In this document: positions 5,426 through 62,350 of the stretch, in pieces
Layout of the letters: each line of letters begins with the position of its first letter
Numbering within the stretch: the first letter of the stretch is position 1
Source: a phage
Direction: 5' to 3' (one strand)
Length of the DNA: 64,000 bases
Sequence record: PZ154897.1
Notes under the pieces: generated by a model
Seen by the model: only the letters and a program-made list of their open reading frames with translations
What the model was told of the DNA's origin: nothing
Databases searched by the model: none
Made by a program: the position numbers and the translations under genes

Positions 5426-5539
5426 TCACATAAATCCAAAGTAAGCGTTTAATACATCAATCATTAAAATGATTGGGAATATACTTAAAACTACTAGTAT
5501 TATAACTACATTCCATATAGCTTTAACAATCTTTTTCAT
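5426..5539 (-). CDS. small membrane peptide (37 aa)
   Basis: internal ATG of ORF 5426..5674; GGAGG SD; early promoter directly upstream. Confidence 0.5.
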   Translation of the reverse strand: MKKIVKAIWNVVIILVVLSIFPIILMIDVLNAYFGFM

Positions 5540-5559
5540 TTTCTGTTCCTCCGTAGTTG

Positions 5560-5598
5560 ATAGGGTAATAATACCACAGAGGAACAGTCTTGTAAACA
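5560..5598 (-). promoter_or_regulatory. T4-type early promoter (GTTTAC -35 / TATTAT -10) with flanking 9-bp inverted repeat
   Basis: minus strand reads GTTTACaagactgttcctctgtggtATTATTA; near-identical to cassette at 60905-60962. Confidence 0.6.
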
Positions 5599-5703: not shown

Positions 5704-5786
5704 AATAACCTCATCACAAAAGTAAATGTTAAACAAATTAATGGAATACTAATTAACCAAACGAAACACCACCATAATGAACTCAT
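5700..5786 (-). CDS. micro-ORF, hydrophobic peptide (28 aa)
   Basis: hand-translated; ATGA overlap with stop of ORF 5783..6046. Confidence 0.4.
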   Translation of the reverse strand: MSSLWWCFVWLISIPLICLTFTFVMRLL

Positions 5787-6046
5787 AGTTCAATCTCAGC
5801 GATTTTCATTTCATTACTATTAATAGCCGCTTTAAGACTATCTGAAAGAATTACATTCCAGTGGTCATTCATATGACCATTAACTAAGCGTGTAATTTCT
5901 TCGGGAGTTGAAAAATAAGGCGTATCAGACTCCCAATGCGATAGTCCCAAGCGAGTATAAATCATACCTTCATCACCGCTAGAATATTCAACTGACACAA
6001 ACTCATCAGTTATTTTATGTTTAGCGTAATAAAATTTAAATTTCAT
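5783..6046 (-). CDS. hypothetical protein (87 aa)
   Basis: ORF with GGAGG SD and early promoter upstream. Confidence 0.55.
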   Translation of the reverse strand: MKFKFYYAKHKITDEFVSVEYSSGDEGMIYTRLGLSHWESDTPYFSTPEEITRLVNGHMNDHWNVILSDSLKAAINSNEMKIAEIEL

Positions 6047-6069
6047 TTTTACTCCTCCGTAGCTGATAG

Positions 6070-6104
6070 TTGTATAGTACCACGGTCCTTGTGGTATGTA
6101 AACT
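6070..6104 (-). promoter_or_regulatory. T4-type early promoter (TTTACA -35 / TACTAT -10)
   Basis: minus strand reads cagTTTACAtaccacaaggaccgtggTACTATA then conserved leader. Confidence 0.6.
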
Positions 6105-6119
6105 GTTTTGTGAAAATTT

Positions 6120-6677: not shown

Positions 6678-6742
6678 TAAACTTTCCTTTTACGTCGGAA
6701 TCACTGATATTCATATAATAAATCATAGTTTCTCTTAAAACA

Positions 6743-6760
6743 AAAGGGCCGAAGCCCTTT
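6743..6760 (-). terminator. intrinsic terminator, UUCG-tetraloop hairpin plus U-tract
   Basis: aaagggc-cgaa-gcccttt; mRNA AAAGGGC UUCG GCCCUUU followed by UGUUUU. Confidence 0.6.
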
Positions 6761-6763
6761 ATT

Positions 6764-6958
6764 TTATTTGAATTGTGCAATTCTTTTCTCTAAACAATCT
6801 GCATAAGATTTCATTGAGATAAACTGCGAAAGCAACAGTTCTTGCTCAACTGCATTAACCGTTGAAAACTTTTCACTTTCTAAAAATTTGCTCAATGCAT
6901 TAATTTTGAGCATTAATTGATCGTATTCTTCTTTTACTCGTGCTTGATAACCTAACAT
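6764..6958 (-). CDS. hypothetical protein (64 aa)
   Basis: ORF between rIIB and denB. Confidence 0.5.
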   Translation of the reverse strand: MLGYQARVKEEYDQLMLKINALSKFLESEKFSTVNAVEQELLLSQFISMKSYADCLEKRIAQFK

Positions 6959-6971
6959 AATTTTCCTTAGT

Positions 6972-6989
6972 TAAGGGCCGAAGCCCTTA
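6972..6989 (-). other. UUCG-tetraloop RNA hairpin overlapping rIIB stop
   Basis: taagggc-cgaa-gccctta. Confidence 0.5.
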
Positions 6990-7925
6990 TTTAAATTGTT
7001 CAGTAACGTCTTCAACTACTTCGTATTGGCAGGTACGCATTTTAGCATCGTTGTAATCAATTGGAATTGATACTACATCGCGAGGATGTACTTTAACTTT
7101 TACAACTCGGCTGGTTGAACTGCCAAAGTGACGAATATAAGATTTAGAACACACATGCAGACCATGAGAACAAGTTTGTGTATCATCGTCATTCACACGA
7201 GTACGTGGCATTTTAACTACTTTACCCGGACTGTTATCAAAGGTGTTTGAGTGACAGTCAAAGTAATTGCTACGAACTACTTTCCAAGCATAGAAGTAAC
7301 CATCTTCTGTAATTTCAATATCGTTTGCTACCAAGAAATCAAAGAGTCGAGATACCGCTTTTTGGCTTGGGTTTTCCAACAGATTTTCCAAGAACGGAAA
7401 ATAAAATTCAAAGTTTTCGCCTTTTTCCATCGAGTCAAGAATACGATCAACCAAACCAGACCGCAATTCAATATTTTGATAGAACAGGCTTCCACCTTCA
7501 ATTCGAACATCGCCGGAAATATATTTTTCAACAGCGCGACGAACATTAATTTTTTGTGCCGCTTCTTCCAATTTATCTGCAACAAGCAGATTAAGAATTT
7601 CCTGGAAGTTTGAATGAGTATTAGGAGTTGCGTTATAAGTTACACCGTCAACAGTAATTGAAATGAATTTTTTAGATGCATTCCAAATAATGTCAGATTT
7701 AGCAACTGGAGCAATAACTGCATCGCTATTAACTTTAACTGTAATATCACCGCTAATAGTAACTTTAGGGCGTTTAGCTTCTTCAGCATTTTTCAAAACA
7801 CGACGGATTGTGTCAACCGATACATCCTTCCAATAAGCCAATTCCTGTTGGGTGTAATTACCGCTTGAATACAGTTTAACAATTTCAGCTTGTTCGTTTT
7901 TGGTCAGGCATTTAATATTGTACAT
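6987..7925 (-). CDS. rIIB: rIIB membrane-associated protein
   Basis: 312-aa ORF, T4 rIIB length; adjacent to rIIA. Confidence 0.9.
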   Translation of the reverse strand: MYNIKCLTKNEQAEIVKLYSSGNYTQQELAYWKDVSVDTIRRVLKNAEEAKRPKVTISGDITVKVNSDAVIAPVAKSDIIWNASKKFISITVDGVTYNATPNTHSNFQEILNLLVADKLEEAAQKINVRRAVEKYISGDVRIEGGSLFYQNIELRSGLVDRILDSMEKGENFEFYFPFLENLLENPSQKAVSRLFDFLVANDIEITEDGYFYAWKVVRSNYFDCHSNTFDNSPGKVVKMPRTRVNDDDTQTCSHGLHVCSKSYIRHFGSSTSRVVKVKVHPRDVVSIPIDYNDAKMRTCQYEVVEDVTEQFK

Positions 7926-10351: not shown

Positions 10352-10384
10352 TAATTATACCACATCCTTGTGGTAAAGTAAACT
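10352..10384 (-). promoter_or_regulatory. T4-type early promoter (GTTTAC -35 / tggTATAAT -10)
   Basis: minus strand GTTTACtttaccacaaggatgtggTATAAT; 29/30 identical to promoter at 57950. Confidence 0.65.
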
Positions 10385-12200
10385 ATTGGCTCATCCATTC
10401 TTTACGAAGGTCAGCATTATCTCCCATGAGCATTTCAAAAAGCTCTTTCCAGTTCTCAGGAAGTTTAACAACATCATAAACTGGGTTTTGAATCATCTCA
10501 CGATATTCAGATTTTTCCAAAGAGCCAAGTCCCTTAATATAACGGATGCTATGTTTAGGTAGAGCATCTTTGGCACTCTCATATTCAGCGACTGTATAAA
10601 ACCATTCTTGTTTTTTACCGACCTGAGCGATGATTACAGGAGTTTTGACAAAGCGAATTCTTCCTTGTTCAAACAGTTCTGGCCAATTACTAAAAAATCC
10701 GAGCAGAGAAGGATAAATGCTTCCTAGACCATCATGGTCAGCATCGGTCATAATTGCAATATTATGATAATTCAAGTTTTCGGCTTTTTCACCAAGAACT
10801 AATCCAGTGATTGCGCAAATATCAAACAGTTCTTTGTTTTTAAGCATATCAGCATATGACATACCCCAACTGTTGAGAACTTTACCACGTAATGGATAAC
10901 CACCATGAAGTTCTTTATCACGAACATCAATAAGATATCCAATAGCAGAATCACCCTCAGTCAAGAAAAGAGTAGTATCAGCATCTTTACCACAAAGATT
11001 CGCTTTAATATGTTTATGAACCTTAGCTTTAGAAGCCTTTTTAGCTGCTTTAGTTTCTGCTGCTTTTTCTGCCGCCAATTTACGAGCAAGGGCAGCTTCA
11101 ATGATTGGCATTAAAATTGCTTCATTATTTAAAATAGCACGTGAAATCTTTTTAGCATCAAGCTGAATATGACTACGGATTTCACCAAATGGAGAAGTAA
11201 GTCGTTCTTTAGTTTGAGAATCAAATCGCATGTTTTTCATATCACGGACAAACATAACGATAGTCAAACATTCTTTGACACGTGCTTTAGTTACATCAAT
11301 TTTGAATTTACGTTTGATTTGTGGAATAAGGTCTTCACAAATATCATCCATAACGCAGTCAATGTGATGGCCACCATTCTTAGTATGAATGTTATTGACG
11401 TATGTTAATTGACGAAAACCATCCGGTGAACGACCAACAGCAATAGAACAATTTTCTTGTTCTTGAACGATAGCATGTTCATCATACTGTCGTGCATATT
11501 TCTTAAAATTACCCTGAACCTTTTTACCATTAAAGGTAAATTGAATATCAGGATAAACTACTGCAAGTGTCTGGAGACGATCCAGTGTAATGTCAAGATA
11601 AACTTGAGATAGCTCATTAGTTTCAAATGACATAAAATCAGGAATGAAAGTAACGCGAGTTCCTTTCCATTTTCCAGGAATAGTTTCCCACGATTTATTT
11701 TCCATGCCATTTGAACAACGAACTACAATATTATTTTGACCATCGCCGGTTTCACCGACAAACATCACAGAAAAAATATTAGTTAAACTAGAACCAACAC
11801 CATTCATACCACCAGTGACGCGTTCTTTATCATCACCGAAGTTACCACCTGCTTTTGGAATAGTCCATGCAGCAACTGGACCAGGAATTTCTTCACCGGT
11901 AGGTGTTTTAACCATCGCCTGTGGAATACCGCGACCGTTATCTTCAACTGTTACTTGATTGTTTTTAATAGTAACATTAATTTTATTTGCGAATTTAAAC
12001 TTAGTACGAATACCTTCATCTACTGAGTTATCGATAATTTCATCAATAAGCTTAACAAGACCAGGTACATACTGAACACTTTCCCATTTACCAAACAGAA
12101 AGCGCTCATGCATTTCATTAGCTGAAGAGCCAATGTACATGCCGCTACGCTTTTTGATATGTTCAATATCGCTCAGAATTTTAATTTCATTCTTAATCAT
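10383..12200 (-). CDS. 39: DNA topoisomerase II large subunit (GyrB-like ATPase), contiguous 39+60
   Basis: 605 codons from first ATG (ORF track starts at GTG 12203); GHKL ATPase and TOPRIM-like motifs; single uninterrupted ORF. Confidence 0.95.
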   Translation of the reverse strand: MIKNEIKILSDIEHIKKRSGMYIGSSANEMHERFLFGKWESVQYVPGLVKLIDEIIDNSVDEGIRTKFKFANKINVTIKNNQVTVEDNGRGIPQAMVKTPTGEEIPGPVAAWTIPKAGGNFGDDKERVTGGMNGVGSSLTNIFSVMFVGETGDGQNNIVVRCSNGMENKSWETIPGKWKGTRVTFIPDFMSFETNELSQVYLDITLDRLQTLAVVYPDIQFTFNGKKVQGNFKKYARQYDEHAIVQEQENCSIAVGRSPDGFRQLTYVNNIHTKNGGHHIDCVMDDICEDLIPQIKRKFKIDVTKARVKECLTIVMFVRDMKNMRFDSQTKERLTSPFGEIRSHIQLDAKKISRAILNNEAILMPIIEAALARKLAAEKAAETKAAKKASKAKVHKHIKANLCGKDADTTLFLTEGDSAIGYLIDVRDKELHGGYPLRGKVLNSWGMSYADMLKNKELFDICAITGLVLGEKAENLNYHNIAIMTDADHDGLGSIYPSLLGFFSNWPELFEQGRIRFVKTPVIIAQVGKKQEWFYTVAEYESAKDALPKHSIRYIKGLGSLEKSEYREMIQNPVYDVVKLPENWKELFEMLMGDNADLRKEWMSQ

Positions 12201-12225: not shown

Positions 12226-12254
12226 ATATTATACTCCAGTAATCATAAAGCTAA
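12226..12254 (-). promoter_or_regulatory. possible middle-type promoter for gene 39 (MotA-box-like AGCTTTA, 12 bp, TATAAT)
   Basis: minus strand tAGCTTTAtgattactggagTATAAT; box has one mismatch to TGCTT. Confidence 0.35.
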
Positions 12255-12270
12255 AGGCCCGAAGGCCTTT
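12253..12270 (-). other. UUCG-tetraloop RNA hairpin
   Basis: aaaggcc-cgaa-ggccttt immediately after lipoprotein gene stop. Confidence 0.55.
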
Positions 12271-12530
12271 TATTTAAAACGAATAGTCGAATCCTTGAAG
12301 AATAGTCCAGAACATACTGTTCCTTCTACTTTCTGCCCAGTAGGTCCAATAGCACGAAATCCAGTATGTTGGAAATCATTTTCAGAGCAACCGAACCAAT
12401 TATATCCAGTGATTTCAATATTAGTAAAACCACTTGAAGACAAAACTTTAGTTGCATTATCAGCATCAGTACATCCTACTAAAGACACTGCTAATACTAA
12501 TGCTGCAATAGAACGATTAATATATTTCAT
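12270..12530 (-). CDS. putative lipoprotein (86 aa)
   Basis: N-terminal signal peptide ending LVGC (lipobox). Confidence 0.55.
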   Translation of the reverse strand: MKYINRSIAALVLAVSLVGCTDADNATKVLSSSGFTNIEITGYNWFGCSENDFQHTGFRAIGPTGQKVEGTVCSGLFFKDSTIRFK

Positions 12531-13352: not shown

Positions 13353-13449
13353 TACAATTTCCTCATTAATTGAACATTGGAGCGATGCGTTTCAGAAGAG
13401 TATCAGCACCTTTAACGAATTATCCATTTTATTCTCCAAGTTGTTTTCT

Positions 13450-13496
13450 GTATCAGTAGTTGATATTGATATAGTACCATAATCAACTACTGATGT
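13450..13496 (-). promoter_or_regulatory. promoter-associated stem-loop: 13-bp perfect inverted repeat enclosing tggTACTATA
   Basis: atcagtagttgat ... atcaactactgat with 17-nt loop holding the conserved -10-like module. Confidence 0.5.
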
Positions 13497-13523
13497 ATAT
13501 AGTTTTATGAAAAATTTTAAACT

Positions 13524-14642: not shown

Positions 14643-15143
14643 TTATCTCATTTCAATAAAATCTACGAGTTCAGCATGCGATTTGCGGAACATTACTTGG
14701 CGTCCGCCAATGATAACTTGGTCATCTGGCACTTCGTATACAGCAAGATAAAATCCCTTAGAAGATAATTCTTCACGCTCTTCTCGTGTGAACCATCTCA
14801 TCATATCATATTCGCTAGCGAAAGCAAAATGATAAAGACCTATAAACCATCCTGGAATATGATATTCTACTCCAACATAATCTTTCTTGAACTTAGTATT
14901 AATTACGATATTAGCATTTTTAACTAATAATTTGTCTTCATGTGGAAGAGGAATTCTTTTATTATCATTACTATGATGCATAAAATTAGGTCTGTCATAA
15001 CCTACGTGTAATAACCACTCTTCGCTCCATGAATCTATTATACTCCTGTATGGCGTTATTTGACCACAAAGATTTCGACGTATTGTTATAGCATCTTCAT
15101 TATTAAGAATACTAAAAGATGATTCAACACGATAAATTTTCAT
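14643..15143 (-). CDS. hypothetical protein (166 aa)
   Basis: ORF-track 14643..15182 trimmed to ATG with GAGGA SD downstream of promoter. Confidence 0.5.
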   Translation of the reverse strand: MKIYRVESSFSILNNEDAITIRRNLCGQITPYRSIIDSWSEEWLLHVGYDRPNFMHHSNDNKRIPLPHEDKLLVKNANIVINTKFKKDYVGVEYHIPGWFIGLYHFAFASEYDMMRWFTREEREELSSKGFYLAVYEVPDDQVIIGGRQVMFRKSHAELVDFIEMR

Positions 15144-15167
15144 TTTATTATCCTCAGTAGCTATGGT

Positions 15168-15201
15168 GTTATAATACCACAACTAACCGAGGAAGTAAAC
15201 A
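15168..15201 (-). promoter_or_regulatory. T4-type early promoter (GTTTAC -35 / TATTAT -10)
   Basis: minus strand GTTTACttcctcggttagttgtggTATTAT. Confidence 0.6.
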
Positions 15202-26768: not shown

Positions 26769-26951
26769 TTATCCTCGGCAATCCACTTCACATACTTTCT
26801 TGTCATCAATGAAAGCTTTAACTAATGCTTTATTAACTTCAGCATATTGAGTAGTAGCCCATTGAACGTCATCTTTCATCATTGTGATTTCTTTAGTAAA
26901 CATGCTTTCATTCTTAAACCACCCCATAAAAACTACCTTTACCAATTCCAT
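26769..26951 (-). CDS. dmd: Dmd-like protein (60 aa), antitoxin against host RnlA/LsoA
   Basis: 60-aa ORF immediately downstream of gene 41, size and position as T4 dmd. Confidence 0.6.
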   Translation of the reverse strand: MELVKVVFMGWFKNESMFTKEITMMKDDVQWATTQYAEVNKALVKAFIDDKKVCEVDCRG

Positions 26952-27009
26952 AACGATCTCCTCATTTAACCAACAAGACTACTATACCATAGTCTTGTCA
27001 GCTTGTAAA

Positions 27010-28437
27010 CTAAAATTTTAATTCATTTGCCAAAGCATCTAACTGGGCTCGAGTAGATTCATTTCTTTGATAGCGATTCTGTTCAGCCTGAATCTGTTGT
27101 GAACCTGCTACTTCGTTCACTTCAGTTGGAGTAGAATCTTGTTCAATTTCTACCCATTTCTGATTTCCTTTTTGAACACCCATCAAAAACTTATTCCATT
27201 TATTCTTATCACCATATCGTGATTTGATTTGCTTAATGAGTTGTTGTTCAGCAGCTGCTAGCTCCTCGGTTTCAATGACCGCAAGCATAAAATCAGCTGT
27301 TGCTGGAAGACCGGCAGATTCTGCGATATCACTCATGTTAACATCAGAAGAATCCCAAGCTTGTTTACCAACCTGTGCTGCAGTCCAAAGAACAGTTTCG
27401 GTTTCAACAGCCAGAGCACGCAATTCTTCTGCAATAGCTTTAACAGTTGTGTAACTATTTTCTGAATAAACTCTAATGCGGCAAGATTTACAAATACCTA
27501 GATAGTCGACAATAATGATTGTTGGAACAAAATTCTTCTTGAGCTTCAATTCATTCAAGAGAGACCTGAATGTGTTAGCATCTGCTCCACCAGTAGGATA
27601 CTGTTTAACGATTAAACGACCAAGAGTAGATTTCTCACGCCATTTTTCCATTTTTCCTTTATATTCAGCGTAAGAAATATGCCCATCATCAATGTCATCA
27701 AGAGAAACATCGAGCATATTAGCGTCAATACGTTTAGCACAGACTTCTTCAGCCATTTCCATGGAAATGTAAAGAACATTATGTCCGAGCTGCAAATAAT
27801 CTGCTGCCAATGAACACAGACCTAATGACTTACCGACGTTAACACCAGCCATTAAAACGTTCAGTGTTCCAGTTTCAGCTCCGCCTTTAGTAATTTTATT
27901 TAGAATTTTGAGTTTAAATGGAACCTTACGAGCTTTATTCATATAAGATAGCCAACGTGCTTCATAGTCATCCATCCAATCATGACCAACGTAGCTATCA
28001 AATGAAATTGATAATGCTTGGCGCATGATGTCAGGAATAGCACCAACATCCGGCATTTTCTTATTTCGTTTTTCCGGAGGAAGCTCAGCATTAGTTTGAA
28101 TTTCGATTATTTTAGACGTAGCATTAAACATCGCCTTTTGCTGAACATATTTTTCTGTTTCTTTTACTAACCAGCTGTGGTCTTCCGGAGAATCAGCCAG
28201 TTTTGAAATAAGTGTTTTTACACCAGAATATTCTGTTTCAGTAAATGAACTATTTTCTAATGCAACATTTAACGCATTAATAGATGGAACGCTATGATAC
28301 TCATTGACATGAGATTTAATTAATTTGAATGTATTTTTAGCTGGACCACTTTCAAAATATTCTGAATCCATATATGGCCAAACTTTTGAAAAATAAGCTT
28401 GATCAAATATGAGATGAGAAAGAATAATTTCTACCAC
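27010..28437 (-). CDS. 41: replicative DNA helicase (DnaB-like)
   Basis: 475-aa ORF, T4 gp41 length; Walker A GVNVGKS. Confidence 0.95.
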   Translation of the reverse strand: MVEIILSHLIFDQAYFSKVWPYMDSEYFESGPAKNTFKLIKSHVNEYHSVPSINALNVALENSSFTETEYSGVKTLISKLADSPEDHSWLVKETEKYVQQKAMFNATSKIIEIQTNAELPPEKRNKKMPDVGAIPDIMRQALSISFDSYVGHDWMDDYEARWLSYMNKARKVPFKLKILNKITKGGAETGTLNVLMAGVNVGKSLGLCSLAADYLQLGHNVLYISMEMAEEVCAKRIDANMLDVSLDDIDDGHISYAEYKGKMEKWREKSTLGRLIVKQYPTGGADANTFRSLLNELKLKKNFVPTIIIVDYLGICKSCRIRVYSENSYTTVKAIAEELRALAVETETVLWTAAQVGKQAWDSSDVNMSDIAESAGLPATADFMLAVIETEELAAAEQQLIKQIKSRYGDKNKWNKFLMGVQKGNQKWVEIEQDSTPTEVNEVAGSQQIQAEQNRYQRNESTRAQLDALANELKF

Positions 28438-28791: not shown

Positions 28792-29965
28792 TAAATTCTT
28801 CCATATCACTTAACTGATCTAGGTCAGTTTCTAAATCAGCTGCTGATTTGTTTTTACTTTCTGGAGATTTAAATTTTTCAACCTTTGAGTTAATCAATTC
28901 ATCAACTTCAGCTTCAACAATTTCATTACTATCAATAGCACCTAACTGATAAGCACGTTTAATAGCATCTCGGAATGGCTGATGCTTAAATAAAGGACCC
29001 CAGAATGTAGTGCAGTTGGTATCTTTTGCACGCCAAGATTTTTCTTCGCGAATCATCTCGCCTGTTTCTTCGTCAAGAAATTCACGAGCATACCAGCCAT
29101 TTTTAGGTTTTACTACAAATCCTAATTCAAGAGCCATATCTAACAATCCAGAATAAGGATCGATACCACCGTCAAATTTAACATCAATAAAGAATTTACT
29201 TTTTTCTTTAACAGTACGAGATTTTTCTACATTTAGAACAAATTGATACCCCTGAAGATCAGAACCATCTTTAATCTGGCGCTTACCGATAATGAATACA
29301 GTATCAGCCGAATACATTACGCCTGTACCACCTGTCATCACGGTTTTACTAAACATTTCAATTGTTTCAATTGTATGGTTAACCGCAACACATGGAATAT
29401 TTTTAATGCTAAAATAAGGAGTAACAATACGGAATAATGACTTCAGTGATTTAGCACGAGTCATATCTGCCACAGATTTTTCATTCAAGGCATCTTCCGT
29501 TTCTTTCTTAGAAGCCATATTACCGATTGAGTCGATGAATACAATAACTTTTTCACCGCGCTCAATAGCTTCAAGCTGATTCACCATATCAATTTTCAGC
29601 TGTTCAACTGACTGGATTGGCGTATGAATTACTCGTTCCGGGTCAACCCCCATGGATCGCAAATAAGCTGGAGTAATACCAAATTCACTATCATAGAATA
29701 GACAAACCGCGTCAGGATATTTGTTCAAATATGCCGCAACCATAGTCAAAGACATATTTGATTTAAAGTGTTTAGAAGGCCCTGCGAAAATAGTTAAACC
29801 AGACTGCATACCGCCATCAATCGCACCAGAAATAGCAATATTGAGCATTGGAATTTTTGTACGGATTACATCCTTTTCATTAAAGAATTTAGATGTAGTC
29901 AGTTCAGCAGTCATTTTAGAAGTGGAAGCTTTAATCAAACGGGATTTTAAATCTGCAATAGACAT
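28784..29965 (-). CDS. uvsX: UvsX recombinase (RecA-like)
   Basis: 393-aa ORF; RecA-fold Walker motifs; synteny 41-40-uvsX. Confidence 0.95.
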   Translation of the reverse strand: MSIADLKSRLIKASTSKMTAELTTSKFFNEKDVIRTKIPMLNIAISGAIDGGMQSGLTIFAGPSKHFKSNMSLTMVAAYLNKYPDAVCLFYDSEFGITPAYLRSMGVDPERVIHTPIQSVEQLKIDMVNQLEAIERGEKVIVFIDSIGNMASKKETEDALNEKSVADMTRAKSLKSLFRIVTPYFSIKNIPCVAVNHTIETIEMFSKTVMTGGTGVMYSADTVFIIGKRQIKDGSDLQGYQFVLNVEKSRTVKEKSKFFIDVKFDGGIDPYSGLLDMALELGFVVKPKNGWYAREFLDEETGEMIREEKSWRAKDTNCTTFWGPLFKHQPFRDAIKRAYQLGAIDSNEIVEAEVDELINSKVEKFKSPESKNKSAADLETDLDQLSDMEEFNE

Positions 29966-30018
29966 TCATTTTTTCCATAGGCATCATTATATTTTCCTCA
30001 CTGGTTAAAGATAGAGTA

Positions 30019-30044
30019 ATTATAACACAATAAATTTAGGCATT
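30019..30044 (-). promoter_or_regulatory. possible MotA-dependent middle promoter for uvsX
   Basis: minus strand aaTGCCTAaatttattgtgtTATAAT (box one mismatch from TGCTT, 12-bp spacing). Confidence 0.45.
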
Positions 30045-30891
30045 AATCAACCGCTATTGGATGAATAGCATTAAACTTATGAAACGCTTCTGATTTTTCT
30101 TTGCGCGAAACACACATGCGAAGAACCTTTAATGGCTCGTCTTCTTCACCCAACGATTTTCGTTTTTCAATATTAGAAGTTTTCCAACGAGCTTGCTCTG
30201 GAAACTCTTTATTGATTTGCTCAAGAGCTCTATTATGTTTTGAATTACTACGAATTGAGCTGCATCCACCGGGAGCCTGCGCTTTTCCAGATACAACCAA
30301 ATATTTGAACAAGGCCAAATGCGGATAACCTTGATTAATTAAATTGAGAAATGCATACATATCTTCGCATAAATCAATTTTTCCATACCCAATTTGTTCT
30401 GTTGTAAGTTTTCCAAGGTCATACCATGTATTCGTGAATCCATATGAATTTTCACGGTAATTACCCCAAGATGAAGTAATTTTAAAAATAGGTAGACGAG
30501 CATGGCCATGATAATACCCGCAATCCATGGCATCTTCAACGTATTGAATCAATTCATAGAACTGCTCACGGGTTAACTGATTAATTTTATCTACGCAGCG
30601 ACGATCATCTTTCTTTCGCATTGAACTCATACGAATAGTAGTATCATCATCAATCATCCAAATTCGTTGACCTGCATACATATCAGTAATCGCTTTACGA
30701 GTACCAGCAATTCCATTGACATCATCAGGAATAGTTATAATTTTAGCTCTAGACCCATAGGCATCATAATAAGCTTTTTCTTCATGTTCACGCACTACAA
30801 TATGGGGTTCATAATCAGTCGGAAACATATCAAGGGCAGAAACTGCCCCTACACGTTGATAACTTGGAATTACAAATTGAATCATTTCCAC
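30043..30891 (-). CDS. glycosyltransferase with DxD motif, candidate HMC-DNA glucosyltransferase (not T4 beta-gt)
   Basis: 282-aa ORF between 42 and uvsX; MIDDDT motif; T4 beta-gt as I recall it is 351 aa and unlike this sequence. Confidence 0.6.
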   Translation of the reverse strand: MEMIQFVIPSYQRVGAVSALDMFPTDYEPHIVVREHEEKAYYDAYGSRAKIITIPDDVNGIAGTRKAITDMYAGQRIWMIDDDTTIRMSSMRKKDDRRCVDKINQLTREQFYELIQYVEDAMDCGYYHGHARLPIFKITSSWGNYRENSYGFTNTWYDLGKLTTEQIGYGKIDLCEDMYAFLNLINQGYPHLALFKYLVVSGKAQAPGGCSSIRSNSKHNRALEQINKEFPEQARWKTSNIEKRKSLGEEDEPLKVLRMCVSRKEKSEAFHKFNAIHPIAVD

Positions 30892-31622
30892 TCACCGTTA
30901 TAATCTTTTTTCATAATATGAGTTTCGCCAGTATTCCACCAATGATCAACCAAGTAAAAATGACGAGAATATACATGAAGACTTCCAACATTCCATATAA
31001 TAGAACCTGCTTTATACTGACGAGTTGAATCGCCTGCATTCAAATCAGATACTAATTTATCTAATACGTATTTTTGCCATGCATAATCATTACGGAATCC
31101 GAAGACCACGTCATTTGAGCGCATGCTTACTACTGCATTGACTTTCTTATCACGAATCAGGTACTGTACTGTATTAGTACACATGAAATCTGACATGCCA
31201 TCTTTATTGTAGTCAAACTGCATAGATGGACGAGTATAAATCATGATACCACGTCGAGAATCAGGATTTTGACCAAGTTCAGCTAAACACATGTCATATT
31301 GAGCATAGTTATCTTCTGACCAGATAGCCCAACCATAATTCGAGTTAATTTCACCTTTAGAAGATGCTACCTGTTGCCAAATCTTTGGTGTTTCACCTGG
31401 AATATCTTTAACAAACAGACTTTGAGACTTGTACCATTCAAGTTCACGCTGAATGTATTCATCATTAAGAGCGCCAAAAATAAACGGTTCATCTGCTACA
31501 AATGATGCGCCAATAATTTCAATAGTTTTAACACCAGTTTTATCAACTACGAAATCTTTTTCCTTTAATGCAGTTCCCAAATGAAGACGGATTTCTTCAA
31601 CTGTCATAGAGTCACTAATCAT
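30882..31622 (-). CDS. 42: dCMP hydroxymethylase
   Basis: 246-aa ORF, T4 gp42 length; thymidylate-synthase-like fold. Confidence 0.92.
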   Translation of the reverse strand: MISDSMTVEEIRLHLGTALKEKDFVVDKTGVKTIEIIGASFVADEPFIFGALNDEYIQRELEWYKSQSLFVKDIPGETPKIWQQVASSKGEINSNYGWAIWSEDNYAQYDMCLAELGQNPDSRRGIMIYTRPSMQFDYNKDGMSDFMCTNTVQYLIRDKKVNAVVSMRSNDVVFGFRNDYAWQKYVLDKLVSDLNAGDSTRQYKAGSIIWNVGSLHVYSRHFYLVDHWWNTGETHIMKKDYNGEWK

Positions 31623-32415: not shown

Positions 32416-32445
32416 TTCATTCTCCAAATCCGTATCAGTTGATAG

Positions 32446-32480
32446 TTATATAGTACCATAAAGGAACCGGGATGTAAACC
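32446..32480 (-). promoter_or_regulatory. T4-type early promoter (GTTTACA -35 / TACTAT -10)
   Basis: minus strand GTTTACAtcccggttcctttatggTACTATA then conserved leader. Confidence 0.6.
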
Positions 32481-32566
32481 ATTTTGTGAAAAAATTTTTA
32501 ATGAATTCAAAGGGCCCAGAATCATCTATTTTTCCTAAGTATAGATTTATATTACTTGTATGAAAA

Positions 32567-35293: not shown

Positions 35294-35351
35294 AGATATT
35301 CCTTAGTTTATAGCCCGAGTTATTAGGCTCTTGATATATTATACTCCAAAT

Positions 35352-35369
35352 AAGGGGCCGAAGCCCCTT
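35352..35369 (-). other. UUCG-tetraloop RNA hairpin upstream of gene 43
   Basis: aaggggc-cgaa-gcccctt followed on mRNA by tggagTATAAT. Confidence 0.55.
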
Positions 35370-35371
35370 GC

Positions 35372-35593
35372 TTAAATTAATACCAGTTGTCGGTGAAAAA
35401 TTGTCAATCCATCTGCATTAATTGACTTAACCACTGCGGTAAAGTGTTTTTGTTCTGGGTGAACTAATTTTTGAAATTCTACCTGAAATTTTAGTTGGAG
35501 GTTTTCTGGTAAATCAAAAAGTGTTTCTGTTGCAGAAAGATTATATTTTTCTTTAAGAGACGCCATGTATTCTTGCGGAGTTATAGCAGTCAT
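35372..35593 (-). CDS. hypothetical protein (74 aa) between regA and 43
   Basis: ATG 1 nt after regA stop; weak SD; ORF track extends it to 87 aa overlapping regA. Confidence 0.4.
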   Translation of the reverse strand: MTAITPQEYMASLKEKYNLSATETLFDLPENLQLKFQVEFQKLVHPEQKHFTAVVKSINADGLTIFHRQLVLI

Positions 35594-37489: not shown

Positions 37490-37523
37490 AATTTCCTCAT
37501 TCAAGTTTTAGTGTAAATTATAA

Positions 37524-37537
37524 AGGGCCGAAGCCCT
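37524..37537 (-). other. short UUCG-tetraloop hairpin between 45 and 44
   Basis: agggc-cgaa-gccct. Confidence 0.45.
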
Positions 37538-37540
37538 CTA

Positions 37541-38227
37541 TTAAAAATCGTGGGTAGAATCAGCTTCAAGAGCTACTACATAATTCGCATGTTCACCTTC
37601 AAATTTAGCAGCGCCTTGTTTACCTTTTGCCCAGAGAAGAAGTTTATAATTTCCTGGTTGCATTTTCATATTTGCCATATTGATAATGAAATTAAATGTA
37701 TTTTCACCATCATAATCACCAAGAGTCAAAGAATATTTAACACGGGTCAAAGCAGAATCTTCTACTTTGTTAAAACCGTTAATTACAATTTTACCTTCTT
37801 TTACTGTGATAGCAATTGTATCAATCTGCAGACCGCGAGATACACGCAACAGCTGTTGAAGGTCTTCAGCTTTAATTTCAGTAACAACAGATGCTACCGG
37901 GAATGGAATTGGTTTATTAGGAGCAACTACTGTACTCGGATCGGCTGCTGGCCAAAAAATTGTTGAGCGAGCATCAGCAATTTTAATATTACCATCTTCT
38001 GACTGGGAAATTTCTGCATCATCATTAACTAGAGACAGAATACCGAGAAAACCGTTCAAATCGTAAATCGCTACATCAAAATCAATAACGTCAGAAATAT
38101 TTGCTTCCGCATAAGTGGTACCATTAACCGCGCGAGTCATAATAAATTGACCGGATTTAAGCATAATACCGGAGTTAATAGTAGCGAAATTTTTCAAAAT
38201 ATTCAGCGTATCTTTAGACAGTTTCAT
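37541..38227 (-). CDS. 45: sliding clamp
   Basis: 228-aa ORF, T4 gp45 length; synteny. Confidence 0.93.
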   Translation of the reverse strand: MKLSKDTLNILKNFATINSGIMLKSGQFIMTRAVNGTTYAEANISDVIDFDVAIYDLNGFLGILSLVNDDAEISQSEDGNIKIADARSTIFWPAADPSTVVAPNKPIPFPVASVVTEIKAEDLQQLLRVSRGLQIDTIAITVKEGKIVINGFNKVEDSALTRVKYSLTLGDYDGENTFNFIINMANMKMQPGNYKLLLWAKGKQGAAKFEGEHANYVVALEADSTHDF

Positions 38228-38681: not shown

Positions 38682-38873
38682 TTAGTCATAATAATCAGTA
38701 ACAGTCCAAGCTTCATTTCTGTTGGACATTATTTTCGTATATTCTGATTTAAATGCATTCTTAAGCATAGATTCAGTAACTATATGCTCTTCATTAGAAA
38801 AATTATTTCTCAGAATATATCGTTTTATTTCAGGAATAGTTAATAGATGCTGTCCAGTTGAATATTCTGCCAC
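38682..38873 (-). CDS. hypothetical protein (63 aa), 45.2 position
   Basis: ORF. Confidence 0.55.
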   Translation of the reverse strand: MAEYSTGQHLLTIPEIKRYILRNNFSNEEHIVTESMLKNAFKSEYTKIMSNRNEAWTVTDYYD

Positions 38874-38883
38874 AGTTCCTCCG

Positions 38884-38891
38884 TATAAATA
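38884..38891 (+). promoter_or_regulatory. T4 late-promoter box TATAAATA upstream of plus-strand HNH gene
   Basis: exact TATAAATA about 34 nt before the ATG at 38925, then AAGGA SD. Confidence 0.5.
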
Positions 38892-38924
38892 TGTTTATCA
38901 CTCGCTGTATCAAAAGGATATGTT

Positions 38925-39641
38925 ATGAATTATAAACTAATTTATGAAAAGTTAATCTCTAATGCTAAATCTCGAAAACTTGATTGCTATACTGAATCTC
39001 ATCACATTATACCACGCTGTTTAAACGGTAGTGATGATGCTTCAAACTTAGTAGATTTAACGCCAGAAGAGCACTATGTAGCTCATCAACTTTTAGTAAA
39101 AATTTATCCTTCTGAACCAAAATTAGTCTATGCTGCTAACATGATGACAGTTTCTACGAAATACGCTAAACGTAACAATAAAACTTTCGGCTGGATTCGT
39201 CGTAAACTCTGGGAAATAGAAAAGAATAAAGAGTTCTCCAAAGAGACACGAAAGAAAATGTCCGACGCAGTAGCTAATAAAGCAAGACTAACTTGTCCAC
39301 ATTGCGGTAAGTCTGGATTAAGCGGGAATATGAATCGATGGCATTTTGATAACTGCCCAAATCATCCCAATCCTAAAGTTAGACCGCCAATGTCTAAAGA
39401 ACACAGAAATAATATCTCAAACGGGCTTAAAGCAATCGTTCTTGAAGAAACATCCTGCGAATTCTGCGGAATGATAGGCAAGAAATGCGTTATCGCAGCG
39501 CATAGAAATTTCTGCAAGAAAAATCCAAATGGACGCAAGAAAACTGAAAAGACTGGTACTTGCGTCCATTGTGGTAAAGTTACCACTTTCGGAAATTTAT
39601 CAAGATGGCATAATGATAATTGTAAATATAAACCTAGCTAA
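38925..39641 (+). CDS. free-standing HNH homing endonuclease with C-terminal zinc-finger repeats
   Basis: ESHHIIPRCLNGSDDASNLVDLTPEEHYVAH HNH motif; repeated CxHCGK...RWHxDNC units; opposite strand to all neighbours. Confidence 0.8.
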   Translation: MNYKLIYEKLISNAKSRKLDCYTESHHIIPRCLNGSDDASNLVDLTPEEHYVAHQLLVKIYPSEPKLVYAANMMTVSTKYAKRNNKTFGWIRRKLWEIEKNKEFSKETRKKMSDAVANKARLTCPHCGKSGLSGNMNRWHFDNCPNHPNPKVRPPMSKEHRNNISNGLKAIVLEETSCEFCGMIGKKCVIAAHRNFCKKNPNGRKKTEKTGTCVHCGKVTTFGNLSRWHNDNCKYKPS

Positions 39642-41322
39642 TCTTAGCTAAACTAAATCTACCAACTTTTTCCATTTGAATGTGCTGACCATATTCCTGT
39701 GGGTCATGGTCTTTATGCGAAATTATGAAGAAGTTGGTATCCTTCAAACCATCTAAAATTTTAGCCACATTTTTAATACCTTCAGCATCAAATGCACCGT
39801 CATACACTTCATCAAGAAATAAACAACTTATTTTAACACCTGAAACTTTTTCAGCAATATCACGCCAAGTAAATAAAAGAGCAATATCAATTCGTGCTTT
39901 TTCACCTTGACTAAATGAAGCATAACTAAAATCTTCACGACCACGGGATTTAATTGTCTCATTAAATTCTTCATCTAATGTAAACACATAATCCGCTTCC
40001 ATTATTTTAAGATAATGGTTAATCTGCTTATTAAATAATGGAATGTACTTTTTAATAATAGCACCTTTAATACCAGAATCTTTGAGCATATCAGTCAAAA
40101 TTCCTCGGTGGTATTTTTCCATTACTAAATTAGTTTTTGTCTTAACAATTTTATCAAGTTCTTCTTGAAGCAGTGCTATTTCATCAGCATGGTCAATAAA
40201 CTCAGAAGATGCTTTTTCTATAGCCGCTTTAACCTTTTTAGCTTTATCTACCGTCGTGATTAGAGATTGCTTTTTATTGCGAATATCATTTGCCAACGTC
40301 TGTTGGGTTTTAATATTATCTCGGTATTCATCAACGAGAACTTTTAAATTATCACGATGTGTTGAAAGCTGTTCAAACGAATGCGTGCATTCAGAAACTT
40401 TATCTTTAATTTTAGAAACAACTTTATCACCGGAACTTAATTGTGACAAACAGGTTGGACATAATCCACCTTCGTGATACATATTAATGACTTTATTATA
40501 CGAGTCAATTTTTGATTTAATTAAAAATGCTTCTTGACCGATTTTATTAAATGCATCAGTCGGGTCTTCATCCAAAACAATATTAACTAATCTTTCATTA
40601 GCTTCTTCTATTTCCGATTTTAGCGTTCTAGCTTCTTTTGCCAAATCATCATACATATTCTGCAGACGAGTAAGGTTATCACCAGTTAATTTTTTCTGGC
40701 GTTCAACGTTATCATTATATATTTTAATTTGTTGGATAATACTATCTTTTTTAACATCAAGCACTTGGTTTTGTGAATTTAATTCACGTATTAGTGCTTT
40801 ATTAAGCTTATCCATTTCAGCTAATGTTCCTACCTCAAGCAGGTCTTCCACAAGCTTTCTTCGCGCAGGGGTCGACAAACCCATGAAAGGGGTATACCCT
40901 GCTGTACCAAGGACAACAATCTGCTTGAAACTGGCATATGACATTCCGATAAGCTGTTCAAATTCTGCTTGGAAATCTTTACTGCTGGCAGATTCATTAA
41001 GACGTGTACCGTTAACGGTGATTTCGAAAACGTTTGGTTTTTGTCCTCTTTTGATATAGTACTTTTTCTCATCATATTCCATCCACAGTTCAACTAAAAG
41101 TTCTTTCTTATTTGTGCTGTTTATTAATTGACCTTTCTTTACATCACGGAATGGCTTGCCAAAAAGCCCAAATGTGATGGCTTCTAACATAGTAGACTTA
41201 CCACCGCCATTTCGTCCAGTAATAAGAGTTTTTTGAACCTTATCTAATTGAATGTCAACTCCATTTTGACCAACTGACATTATATTTTTATATTTTACTC
41301 TATTAAGTTTAAATGATTTCAT
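39634..41322 (-). CDS. 46: recombination endonuclease subunit (Rad50/SbcC-like ATPase)
   Basis: 562-aa ORF; Walker A GRNGGGKST; coiled-coil middle; ABC signature near C-terminus. Confidence 0.93.
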   Translation of the reverse strand: MKSFKLNRVKYKNIMSVGQNGVDIQLDKVQKTLITGRNGGGKSTMLEAITFGLFGKPFRDVKKGQLINSTNKKELLVELWMEYDEKKYYIKRGQKPNVFEITVNGTRLNESASSKDFQAEFEQLIGMSYASFKQIVVLGTAGYTPFMGLSTPARRKLVEDLLEVGTLAEMDKLNKALIRELNSQNQVLDVKKDSIIQQIKIYNDNVERQKKLTGDNLTRLQNMYDDLAKEARTLKSEIEEANERLVNIVLDEDPTDAFNKIGQEAFLIKSKIDSYNKVINMYHEGGLCPTCLSQLSSGDKVVSKIKDKVSECTHSFEQLSTHRDNLKVLVDEYRDNIKTQQTLANDIRNKKQSLITTVDKAKKVKAAIEKASSEFIDHADEIALLQEELDKIVKTKTNLVMEKYHRGILTDMLKDSGIKGAIIKKYIPLFNKQINHYLKIMEADYVFTLDEEFNETIKSRGREDFSYASFSQGEKARIDIALLFTWRDIAEKVSGVKISCLFLDEVYDGAFDAEGIKNVAKILDGLKDTNFFIISHKDHDPQEYGQHIQMEKVGRFSLAKIS

Positions 41323-41337
41323 TTTGTATCCAATTGT

Positions 41338-42192
41338 TCACAATGAAGAAAATTCTTTAACTAAAGCCTGTAATGAAGCCTCTATTGGATATCCATTCTT
41401 AACTAACATTTTCCTAAACATCACATGTTTAGGACGATTATATGATATCCACAATTCATACAATTTATCTTTATTATCCCAATGATAGCCTTTTCGTCGA
41501 GATGCTATATGAGCTTTTCTAATCTCCGGATTTTTCCAACTAGCAGCTACTGAATTTGATATAGCTATTTTATATTCAGGTTTTGATAAAGCAGCGCGAA
41601 CAGCCCTTTGGTGTTTAATTTTATTTTCTTCGTTATTAAACCATTCCCTTGAAGCCATTGAAATTTTTTGTTTTGTTTTAAAATTATTTAATCTTTCTTT
41701 GTTATCTTTTCTATTTTTTGCTACTGAAAAATATTTTAATGCCCTTTCTCTAGCAGCATTTCTATTTTGCGGATTTGAATAATACTGTTGAAGCCTTTTT
41801 GATATTGTGTCACTTACATCTTGTTTTATAAAACTATATTCAGCAGCTATTAAATCAACTTCGGCTAAAGATAAATTTTTATATGTTTTTCCTGACATCA
41901 TTCTATTTAAAGCATTTAGCATTTTTCCATTTTTACCTTTTGCTAATAAGAAATGTGCTTTGAAATGATTGAAATGACTTAAATTAACTAAATTCCATGT
42001 AGATTTTAAATATTCAGGAAATATTGATTTAGGAAGCACGTGATGTGCTTCCGTTTTACCTGGAGTTTTAACAGTTGAATTCATAGAAATAAAATTAATG
42101 TAAGACTTGGCGTCTTCTTCGCTCAACACTAATTTTTCAACTAATTCCTTTATTAAAAATTCATCATTAATATCAAGTTTAAAATTCTTCAC
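41338..42192 (-). CDS. free-standing HNH homing endonuclease with NUMOD-like repeats
   Basis: TEAHHVLPKS...NLVNLSHFNHFKAH HNH motif; repeated basic helix units; GTG start with AAGGA SD. Confidence 0.7.
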   Translation of the reverse strand: MKNFKLDINDEFLIKELVEKLVLSEEDAKSYINFISMNSTVKTPGKTEAHHVLPKSIFPEYLKSTWNLVNLSHFNHFKAHFLLAKGKNGKMLNALNRMMSGKTYKNLSLAEVDLIAAEYSFIKQDVSDTISKRLQQYYSNPQNRNAARERALKYFSVAKNRKDNKERLNNFKTKQKISMASREWFNNEENKIKHQRAVRAALSKPEYKIAISNSVAASWKNPEIRKAHIASRRKGYHWDNKDKLYELWISYNRPKHVMFRKMLVKNGYPIEASLQALVKEFSSL

Positions 42193-43792: not shown

Positions 43793-43815
43793 TATATCAA
43801 ACTCCGTATAAAGCT

Positions 43816-43833
43816 AAAGGGCCGAAGCCCTTT
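43816..43833 (-). other. UUCG-tetraloop RNA hairpin at a-gt stop
   Basis: aaagggc-cgaa-gcccttt. Confidence 0.55.
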
Positions 43834-45034
43834 ATTTTGTAATAATGTCAAACTGTTCTTTAAAGCAGAAGCTTGAATCTTGATGCTGATACAAAAATTC
43901 ATAAGCTTTTTCACGTTCACGGTCATAAAGAGCTCGGTCAGATGACAGTTCTTTAATACGTTCAAATGTTGATTCCATGTCATTTTCATCAAACCAAACG
44001 ATACCGCTATCGTGTGAAATTAATGGAGTATTATCAACACGGAATTTTAAATTTTCGCCAGTACATTTCCAAAATACCGGAATTGTTCCACATGCACCAA
44101 GCTCGAGATGAGTATATTCTAAAGAACGTTGTAGATATTTTTTGTCCAACTTACTCAGCTGATAACCAAATCCGGATTTACTCATGCGTTCAAGCATTTC
44201 GCTATTTACATAACGGTCGAGAATTTGCGTCGGCAAATTAGGAGCAATTTTAATTTGGTCTACTTGGTGAAGACGATAATACTCGTATGGAATTCCTTTT
44301 TCTTTAATAGGAATGAACGCTGGAGAACGTTCCAGACCTTCCATAATAGTACTTAGTCCTGCAGGTTTAAGATGTTTTTCATGAAAATCAAACATCTGAT
44401 AAAAACCTTTCCATGTAGTCGTACGACCAATCCAACGGTTGATATTCATGTTAATTTCAGAAACATCTTTCCAGTAGGTTGACCGAACCTTCGCAATATC
44501 CATAGGAGGCTGAAAGTTATATACTGCCGGTGCTTCTTCAATATCATCAAACAGAGAAACTGTTTCAGGATACCATTCTTTCATCAGAACTTTATTAAAA
44601 TCACCATTATCAGAATGGCTAAAAATAACATCAGCTCGACGAACAGTTTCTTCTAATCCCAAATTTCGGCGCAAAGAAAGAGAAGAATGGTCATGTTGAT
44701 AAACTACAACACGAACAGAAGGTTTAATGTTATCAATAATTTTTTTATAGTTATTAATAGTGTCTTCTTCAACCGAAGTAGCAGGAACTGAATTGATAAT
44801 TAGAATATCACAATCATTTACCAGCTTAAGTGTTTTATCGTATTCTTTTGCCAATAAAACTGGAATTGAAAATGATTTATAATCATGCGCGCAATTACGA
44901 GTAAATGATTTATCTTTAGCATAAACCAAAGTCACTTCATGACCATTTTTAATAAACCAATCACGTTGCTCGAGTGAGAATTTTGTTACACCACAACCTT
45001 CAAGACCTCGAGCCATAAAAATACATACTTTCAT
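43832..45034 (-). CDS. a-gt: alpha-glucosyltransferase for HMC-DNA
   Basis: 400-aa ORF, T4 alpha-gt length; synteny 47 - a-gt - 55. Confidence 0.85.
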   Translation of the reverse strand: MKVCIFMARGLEGCGVTKFSLEQRDWFIKNGHEVTLVYAKDKSFTRNCAHDYKSFSIPVLLAKEYDKTLKLVNDCDILIINSVPATSVEEDTINNYKKIIDNIKPSVRVVVYQHDHSSLSLRRNLGLEETVRRADVIFSHSDNGDFNKVLMKEWYPETVSLFDDIEEAPAVYNFQPPMDIAKVRSTYWKDVSEINMNINRWIGRTTTWKGFYQMFDFHEKHLKPAGLSTIMEGLERSPAFIPIKEKGIPYEYYRLHQVDQIKIAPNLPTQILDRYVNSEMLERMSKSGFGYQLSKLDKKYLQRSLEYTHLELGACGTIPVFWKCTGENLKFRVDNTPLISHDSGIVWFDENDMESTFERIKELSSDRALYDREREKAYEFLYQHQDSSFCFKEQFDIITK

Positions 45035-47414: not shown

Positions 47415-47452
47415 ACATTATCCTCAATTACGTTAAAATTTTATTATCCAAA

Positions 47453-47468
47453 AAGGGCCGAAGCCCTT
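47453..47468 (-). other. UUCG-tetraloop RNA hairpin
   Basis: aagggc-cgaa-gccctt. Confidence 0.5.
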
Positions 47469-47667
47469 AGCTAAACCGTTTGGCACCCTTCCAGCCTTCG
47501 TACATCATTGCGGCTGATATTAATATTGCTCCTGAGCAACTTGAATATTTGTGATTCCAAAACCAGTTTAGAAAAACTTCATCATCAATACCTTGGGCTA
47601 TCATATTTTCAAAGAACTGACGACGAGCTTCGGCAATTCGTTGTGATAATTTAGATTCAGGATTCAT
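47467..47667 (-). CDS. hypothetical protein (66 aa)
   Basis: ORF. Confidence 0.5.
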   Translation of the reverse strand: MNPESKLSQRIAEARRQFFENMIAQGIDDEVFLNWFWNHKYSSCSGAILISAAMMYEGWKGAKRFS

Positions 47668-57920: not shown

Positions 57921-57949
57921 ATTAATCTCCTCAGTAGAAAGTAAGAACA

Positions 57950-60903: not shown

Positions 60904-60927
60904 TTTCTGTTCCTCCGTAGTTGATAG

Positions 60928-62336: not shown

Positions 62337-62350
62337 TTTATTCTCCAAAT

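Follow-up and report, generated by a model that had tools for sequence, protein, structure and literature searches.

Promoter-early stem-loops (PeSLs) are compact elements of T4-type phages that comprise a strong sigma-70-like early promoter, an AT-rich upstream region, a stem-loop, a Shine-Dalgarno (SD) sequence and a start codon (Arbiol 2010, PMC2839356). The stem-loop takes one of five positions, including one that overlaps the -10, and the elements are concentrated before ORFans in hyperplastic regions, where they serve shuffling through homologous recombination (Arbiol 2010, PMC2839356). The concept was later extended to the T4/PST pair, with the consensus TTTACW-N17-TAYWAT and with the ndd.4/.5 locus as an example of PeSL exchange (Comeau 2014, Fig. 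6A, PMC4122927). Three other described systems are close to these elements. The T4 early promoters share GTTTAC at -36 to -31, a GT-rich stretch before -12 and an A-rich UP element (PMC1524935). The T4 genes e, soc, 49 and I-TevI carry hairpins which sequester the ribosome-binding site and have an internal promoter (PMC3014915). Promoter-containing conserved elements also flank the internal-protein (IP) genes of T-even phages (Repoila et al., 1994, as discussed in PMC2839356). Here we describe two sequences of this general type, at positions 5537-5598 and 60901-60962 of a 64,000-nucleotide (nt) stretch of phage DNA (record PZ154897.1; the whole stretch is referred to as the window). They are probably paralogous T4-type early promoter cassettes of the PeSL kind, each read by host sigma-70 and including the 5′ leader, with a hairpin and a record of exchange between the copies.

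The window belongs to Tequatrovirus and is about 95% identical to T4. Its order is collinear with T4 162161-168903 followed by T4 1-56456, which holds at both loci, and all of its early genes lie on the minus strand. On that strand, cassette 1 (5537-5598) supplies an early promoter, 5′ untranslated region and start codon to a homologue of ndd.4, an open reading frame (ORF) of 37 amino acids (aa) at 5426-5539. Cassette 2 (60901-60962) does the same for nrdC.8, a 175-aa ORF at 60376-60903. The first-pass annotation of the window had called the two downstream genes unrelated, and they do belong to separate PHROG families, both of unknown function; the genes upstream of the two cassettes are unrelated as well. 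The cassettes are placed in the ndd.1-6 and nrdC.1-11 clusters, before small ORFs of unknown-function PHROGs, which is the location expected of a PeSL. Both are present in T4 at equivalent positions with few substitutions, and at the site orthologous to cassette 2, ahead of nrdC.8, T4 record U76612.1 has annotated -35 and -10 signals. The same record labels the nrdC.4 and nrdC.10 sites as 'early promoter 50.0' and 'early promoter 54.4', respectively. No promoter features are present in T4 records NC_000866 and AF158101, and an Rfam scan of the whole window returned no family at its gathering score.

Read on the transcribed strand, each cassette consists of G-TTTACA, a 17-nt spacer, TATTAT or TACTAT, a leader of about 22 nt, GGAGG, six bases and ATG. 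In cassette 1 the -35 element G-TTTACA lies at 5591-5597 on the minus strand, its GTTTAC being the T4 early -35 consensus (PMC1524935), and the -10 hexamer TATTAT lies at 5568-5573; a sigma-70 scan reported TTTACA-17-TATTAT with 10 of 12 matches. The corresponding elements of cassette 2, also on the minus strand, are TTTACA at 60955-60960 and TACTAT at 60932-60937. A TG precedes the -10 in both, and both promoters fit the T4/PST PeSL consensus TTTACW-N17-TAYWAT as well as the T4 early consensus of GTTTAC and a GT-rich stretch before a TAnnnT -10. The 3′ end of each cassette is formed by the SD and start codon in the arrangement GGAGG-N6-ATG. Across the window, GTTTAC-type sites with a downstream SD and start codon number 24 on the early-gene strand against 4 on the opposite strand. 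Upstream of copy 1 the sequence is clearly A/T-rich (ATATTTTTAAAAAAGTT), while that upstream of copy 2 (GAAAGAAGTTTCTTTTAGTG) is about 71% A+T, against a window average of 66%, and contains no A-tract. The cassettes follow closely on their upstream neighbours: the nrdC.9 stop codon lies 2 nt ahead of GTTTAC in cassette 2, and the ndd.5 stop codon 7 nt ahead in cassette 1. A terminator scan called no terminator-like site between either cassette and the upstream ORFs.

A further short motif is found in the leaders of this promoter class. Of 16 early-promoter leaders, 7 have CTAC immediately 5′ of the SD, where about 0.5 would be expected from background frequency; the promoters concerned are at 60960, 5596, 6102, 57977, 26506, 15199 and 13499, all on the minus strand. 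The conserved GTGGT that precedes the -10 is its complement if one G-U pair is counted, and the motif may reflect either common ancestry of the leaders or general pairing between spacer and leader.

The two cassettes are identical at 56 of 62 positions. They had been reported as two identical 27-nt blocks separated by eight variable nucleotides of the -10 hexamer. Near-identity stands, with slightly different limits for the exact blocks: 5537-5563 equals 60901-60927 over 27 nt and 5572-5597 equals 60936-60961 over 26 nt. The expected number of chance matches to each block was zero (100 dinucleotide shuffles, three mismatches allowed). The account of the differences has to be corrected. The 8-nt block accounts for five, of which one changes the third base of the -10 hexamer (TATTAT versus TACTAT) and four make up the four bases that follow it (TACC versus ACAA). 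The sixth is outside the block altogether, at the base 5′ of GTTTAC. Position 3 of the hexamer is itself polymorphic for T, C and G, reading TATTAT in cassette 1 of the window, TACTAT in T4 and TAGTAT in one IMG/VR contig. The variable block is a position-3 hexamer polymorphism combined with a 4-nt discriminator variant, all of it within the loop of the hairpin described below, and no functional hexamer is swapped. When IMG/VR was scanned for other settings of the cassette, T4-like contigs yielded the ndd.4 and nrdC.8 contexts only; the remaining pattern matches were chance matches in unrelated contigs.

Both cassettes have a long hairpin over the -10. The first-pass annotation had noted a 9-bp inverted repeat that brackets the -10, and this is accurate for Watson-Crick DNA; as sense-strand RNA the same region forms a 15-bp stem, CUGUUCCUCUGUGGU paired with ACUACGGAGGAACAG, with two G-U pairs and a 15-nt loop. 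On the minus strand of cassette 1, the 5′ arm (CTGTTCCTCTGTGGT) occupies 5573-5587 and is made up of the promoter spacer and the initial T of the -10. Within the loop (5558-5572) are bases 2-6 of the -10, the TACC discriminator and the probable +1. The 3′ arm (ACTACGGAGGAACAG; 5543-5557) belongs to the leader and contains the whole SD GGAGG (5548-5552), in line with the suggestion that the repeat can pair with the SD. The elements of cassette 2, on the same strand, are a 5′ arm at 60937-60951, a loop at 60922-60936 with the variant ACTATACAACTATCA, and a 3′ arm at 60907-60921 with its SD GGAGG at 60912-60916. All five clustered differences between the cassettes fall in the loop, probably because the loop is the only part free of pairing or SD constraint.

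Folding predictions separate the RNAs that could cover each start site. An 81-nt read-through RNA folds at -23.2 kcal/mol for copy 1 (z -4.1) and -25.4 kcal/mol for copy 2 (z -4.6) with the SD in the stem; against shuffled spacers only, the z values are -6.0 and -6.8. The transcript that begins at the probable +1 of each cassette is unstructured, with -1.6 kcal/mol for copy 1 (5520-5564) and -0.4 kcal/mol for copy 2. The hairpin can form in read-through RNA only, since its 5′ arm belongs to the promoter spacer. Antisense RNA folds at about -16 kcal/mol in both copies; the sense RNA is some 7 kcal/mol more stable because of its G-U pairs, which suggests a structure formed by RNA of the transcribed strand.

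Comparison with related genomes provides the evidence for exchange. Among the matches listed in INPHARED, the nrdC.8-type loop (TACTATACAA) is found at the ndd.4 locus in 59 records, 26 of them exact over an 80-nt locus-specific query, and the ndd.4-type loop (TATTATTACC) is found at the nrdC.8 locus in 11 records, both counts including some GenBank/RefSeq duplicates. In phage ECO07P4, both loops are swapped relative to the window, as confirmed at the sequence level. ECO07P4 retains the ndd.4-lineage substitutions in the 5′ arm, and the exchanged tracts must therefore be short. IMG/VR contigs contain the same loop swaps, and both loci are polymorphic for ACAG/ACAC where the 3′ arm ends. The presence of loop variants at opposite loci shows ectopic exchange between copies that lie 55 kb apart.

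Exchange is also visible in the composition of other early promoters. The T4 imm.1 promoter (T4 27074) joins the -35 and spacer of the focal cassettes (GTTTACAAGACTGTTCTTCC) to an nrdC.10-type leader, a combination in which no hairpin forms (-6.1 kcal/mol); the orthologous imm.1 promoter of the window (32417-32483) has a different spacer. Early promoters are mosaics of spacer, core and leader modules. The modular shuffling proposed in the first-pass annotation, which had recommended comparing the copies across related genomes, is upheld by the swapped loop variants, the mosaic promoters and the neighbouring cassettes that sit at indel junctions. The swap at the -10 that it singled out is likewise real as a variant block exchanged between loci, and is misnamed as a swap of the functional hexamer, being located in the hairpin loop.

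In nine distinct Tequatrovirus versions of the cassette, 96% of cells pair and all three interior changes keep pairing through wobble; the two outermost pairs are the only ones broken, in some genomes. More informative is the orthologous nrdC.8 promoter of three other lineages, which also has a hairpin over the -10, built each time from different arm sequences. IMG/VR contigs L048 and L049, called Dhakavirus-like by judgement on the weak grounds of 68-70% protein identity, have an 11-bp stem (AUCUCCAGUAG/CUACUGGAGGU) that pairs the spacer with the SD (-18.3 kcal/mol, z -3.5 in L048; -12.1 kcal/mol, z -1.6 in L049, which has one stem mismatch). A 10-11-bp stem whose 3′ arm includes the -10 and leaves out the SD is found in the confirmed Mosigvirus record RPN187 (-13.6 kcal/mol, z -1.2) and in sequences judged Mosigvirus-like from 73-84% protein identity, namely L044 and L047 (-13.6 kcal/mol, z -1.6) and ECO111 5-P (-13.7 kcal/mol, z -1.8). 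Gaprivervirus records VR20 and CJ20 have a 10-bp core, with 13 pairs in the fold, which encloses the -10 and again excludes the SD (-19.5 kcal/mol, z -3.2).

Similar structures recur elsewhere in the window. Strong hairpins that enclose the -10, defined as z at or below -3 against shuffled spacers, are found in 6 of the 16 early-promoter-like sites (five of the six at or below -5), and three of the six bury the SD. One is the early promoter before the motB.2 homologue (15137-15200, minus strand), unrelated in sequence to the focal cassettes, in which spacer and leader form a hairpin of about 17 bp around the -10 that also buries the SD (-23.7 kcal/mol, z -6.55). Two more minus-strand early promoters enclose the -10 and leave the SD outside: the promoter at 13421-13500 does so with a 13-bp inverted repeat (ATCAGTAGTTGAT/ATCAACTACTGAT; z -4.87) and the promoter at 26946-27010 with a 15-bp hairpin (z -4.74). 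The recurrent feature is a stem-loop over the promoter that can form only in RNA from upstream, and SD occlusion is a subset to which the focal cassettes belong.

From this arrangement a mechanism can be proposed. Each cassette, judged by its promoter signals, would drive immediate-early transcription of its own ORF, the ndd.4 or nrdC.8 homologue. RNA begun at that promoter would lack the 5′ arm and leave the ribosome site free, while upstream read-through RNA, with no terminator between, would by the same geometry fold the hairpin and bury that site. The hairpin may also attenuate or stabilize the read-through RNA. Comparison with other genomes shows the copies of about 60 bp to be homology patches for the phage recombination system, and short tracts including the loop variant have moved between the two loci. 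A more specific suggestion, which we advance tentatively and regard as possible rather than probable, is that the ndd.4, nrdC.8 and motB.2 promoters act as a translation licence: only RNA started at them would be translated, and early or middle read-through from upstream would stay silent. If true, this would be an early-promoter counterpart of the late switch of genes e, soc and I-TevI; the products would be made in the first minutes of infection alone, each promoter-leader-ORF unit would work independently at any site to which it recombined, and the unpaired loop could vary and be swapped between copies. In T4, RegB cleaves the nrdC.8 GGAG moderately in vivo (Durand 2006, PMC1702504). This cleavage indicates that RNA over the nrdC.8 translation start exists early with a partly accessible SD, and it does not separate the models.

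Several observations weigh against the interpretation of the cassettes as PeSL-type units with a conserved, SD-masking hairpin. The Mosigvirus-like and Gaprivervirus hairpins exclude the SD, so what is conserved may be a hairpin over the -10 and not the occlusion of the SD. As a property of the whole promoter class, SD masking by the spacer was tried and rejected, with 5 of 16 promoters observed and 4.8 expected from shuffled spacers. The two outermost stem pairs are broken in T4 nrdC.8, and the nine Tequatrovirus versions contain no compensatory double changes, which makes covariation uninformative. The +1 is placed from the usual spacing of 6-8 nt downstream of a -10, and copy 2 has no clear A-tract UP element. 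As for recombination, neither focal cassette is itself a window/T4 junction, and the finding that 4 of 20 such junctions from megablast lie inside cassettes, where 0.9 were expected (P about 0.01-0.04), is a modest enrichment whose expectation ignores the general preference of indels for intergenic DNA. With blastn chaining it is not significant (3 of 17 gaps, two of which are one insertion counted twice; P 0.10).

The strongest competing explanation is that the stem-loop is mainly a transcription attenuator, a terminator or an RNA 3′-end stabilizer for upstream transcripts, the role originally put forward for PeSLs, and that SD occlusion is incidental. In a lacZ assay, a PeSL stem-loop of the RB49 type displayed terminator-like activity (Arbiol 2010, PMC2839356). 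The overlap of the nrdC.8 hairpin with the -10, and not with the SD, in the Mosigvirus-like and Gaprivervirus sequences speaks for such a role, as does the division of the six strong window hairpins, of which only half bury the SD. The focal hairpins themselves are not terminator-like, however: the stem is followed by AAAAUG instead of a U-tract, the loop is 15 nt long, the terminator scan called neither site, and the stems are not G/C-rich, unlike those of RB49. On balance this role as the principal one is rather unlikely, and it is compatible with SD masking, as the two are not mutually exclusive.

It is improbable that the inverted repeat acts as DNA, whether as an operator for a dimeric regulator over the -10, as a cruciform that tunes the promoter or as a target for a recombination protein. 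The repeat does bracket the -10, the shut-off of T4 early promoters is incompletely understood (PMC3014915), and a DNA-binding protein that recognizes PeSL stems has been the subject of speculation (Arbiol 2010, PMC2839356). As DNA, however, only 9 of the 15 pairs are contiguous Watson-Crick pairs, and single-stranded DNA folds are weak, at about -11 and -9 kcal/mol, with the antisense strand the weaker (sense/antisense, -11.3/-9.2 kcal/mol in copy 1 and -11.0/-6.9 kcal/mol in copy 2). A 15-nt loop would also be expected to disfavor cruciform extrusion. A DNA operator common to these promoters was considered and rejected, since the arm sequences differ completely among promoters and orthologues.

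The likeness of the cassettes could in principle have arisen without shared origin or recombination, by independent selection towards the T4 early-promoter and ribosome-binding-site consensus, and the extended consensus that T4 early promoters do share (GTTTAC, the GT-rich stretch before the -10 and the SD) gives this idea some footing. Yet when the 16 early-promoter-like sites of the window are compared after alignment at the -35, the focal pair shares 55 of 60 positions, including positions outside the consensus, against a median of 28 of 60 and 43 of 60 for the next best pair. An intact loop variant of 4-5 nt also occurs at either locus in different genomes. Pure convergence, contradicted by these swapped alleles, is rejected and is very improbable. 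That the copies mark the border of a longer duplication of coding sequence, which the first-pass annotation had named as grounds for abandoning its reading, can be dismissed as next to impossible, since identity gives out at ATGAA, two bases into the coding part, and at the base that precedes GTTTAC, the flanks and upstream genes are unrelated, the downstream PHROGs differ and nothing was found in its favor.

The focal pair is accompanied by further cassettes in the window. A second pair had been reported as identical at 29 of 30 positions; it proved to be real, with 31 of 32 positions identical between 10354-10385 and 57949-57980, and is limited to the stretch from the -35 to the -10. The first of these minus-strand promoter cores lies upstream of rIIA.1 and has the spacer hairpin CCACAAGGATGTGG; the second, upstream of nrdC.4, corresponds to the 'early promoter 50.0' of U76612.1. 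Their single difference is also found in T4. A cassette related to the focal ones lies at 6041-6107 (minus strand), before an 87-aa ORF of phrog_2390 (5783-6046, minus strand, unknown function) which is not in T4 and stands between the ndd.6 and denB homologues. Junctions of the window with T4 and with phage ECO07P2 fall here; ECO07P2 has a 227-nt insertion at 6054-6061 with an extra ORF behind a chimeric promoter. The cassette before nrdC.10 (62330-62382, minus strand) is truncated: it keeps the -10 and leader but, compared with T4, has lost the -35, the UP element and a terminator's 3′ half. Phage HY01 carries 673 nt of inserted DNA at 62382, with an additional ORF and a promoter of its own.

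The deletion at nrdC.10 has a parallel elsewhere in the window. Deletions of about 50 nt relative to T4 are found at about 2490-2503, upstream of motA, and at about 62380-62385, upstream of nrdC.10. In each case an early promoter has lost its -35 and UP element and a terminator hairpin its 3′ half and T-tract, and the surviving TGnTACTAT -10 and leader are fused to the 5′ half of the terminator. A contiguous match to 80-mers spanning the deletions was found in none of about 440-500 Tequatrovirus records, and both deletions appear to be unique to this genome.

The remaining window/T4 junctions are mostly homing-endonuclease or intron differences. Replaced or extra DNA relative to T4 is found at 29953-30900, 38867-39654, 41313-42171, 52421-53289 and other places; the window lacks, or has other DNA in place of, the T4 mobA region, mobB, segA, the I-TevII intron and, probably, mobD. 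The large differences mostly involve homing-endonuclease genes and not promoter cassettes. The window also contains a repeated hairpin, GGGCCGAAGCCC, with a UUCG tetraloop on the gene strand, at 6736-6765, 6973-7000, 12246-12275, 35345-35374, 37515-37544, 43809-43838 and 47445-47474. The copies at 6743-6760 and 6972-6989 were called terminator-like, the first on both strands; the others were seen as repeats.

The cassettes illustrate an idea which is already published, namely that the small accessory genes of T4-like phages are maintained as expression units complete in themselves, which recombine via shared regulatory DNA. The reciprocal exchange of loops 55 kb apart is clean evidence, at the level of sequence, that ectopic gene conversion takes place in natural populations of Tequatrovirus, and the hairpin geometry, if confirmed, would add a translational layer to the PeSL concept. 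Neither alters the current picture of T4 biology.

Set beside the systems described at the outset, the cassettes are closest to PeSLs. The first-pass annotation had named this class of element, and its identification agrees with the promoter, stem-loop, SD and start codon, location and recombination features given in Arbiol 2010 and Comeau 2014. As in a PeSL, a sigma-70-type early promoter, a stem-loop, an SD and a start codon are packed into about 60-100 bp and repeated before small unknown-function ORFs in plastic regions, where they offer homology patches for gene shuffling, and the associated stem-loop is stable (15 bp, -23 to -25 kcal/mol). Unlike the T4/PST stem-loops, which are placed just upstream of the promoter (Comeau 2014, PMC4122927), the focal stem-loop extends across the -10, so that the spacer is paired with the SD, and an overlap with the -10 is among the five positions of Arbiol 2010; its stem is also not G/C-rich and has no U-tract. 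As T4 early promoters the cassettes match the consensus with no essential difference (PMC1524935; U76612.1), save that copy 2 is without a clear A-tract UP element. The IP-gene elements resemble them in their T4 early promoters, their AT-richer stem-loops and the exchange of cassettes among T-even phages, as far as these are discussed in PMC2839356, and differ in lying at other loci.

The likeness to genes e, soc, 49 and I-TevI concerns the logic of the hairpin. In those genes, as in the in silico folds of the focal cassettes, the SD is paired in the long read-through RNA and free in RNA from the proximal promoter, which is located within the hairpin so that its own transcript lacks the 5′ arm. 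Their internal promoter is a late, gp55-dependent one that delays expression, whereas the focal promoter is an early sigma-70 promoter, so the switch would limit translation to early RNA from the proximal promoter. By analogy, the focal cassettes would work like this class and are not members of the described set. The kind of element is already known, as PeSL-type T4 early-promoter cassettes, and the sequences themselves are present in T4. What they add to the sources compared here is modest: a 15-bp RNA stem that encloses the -10 and the start site and buries the SD, the identity of the 8-nt variable block with the loop of that stem, and the reciprocal exchange of the loop between two early promoters.

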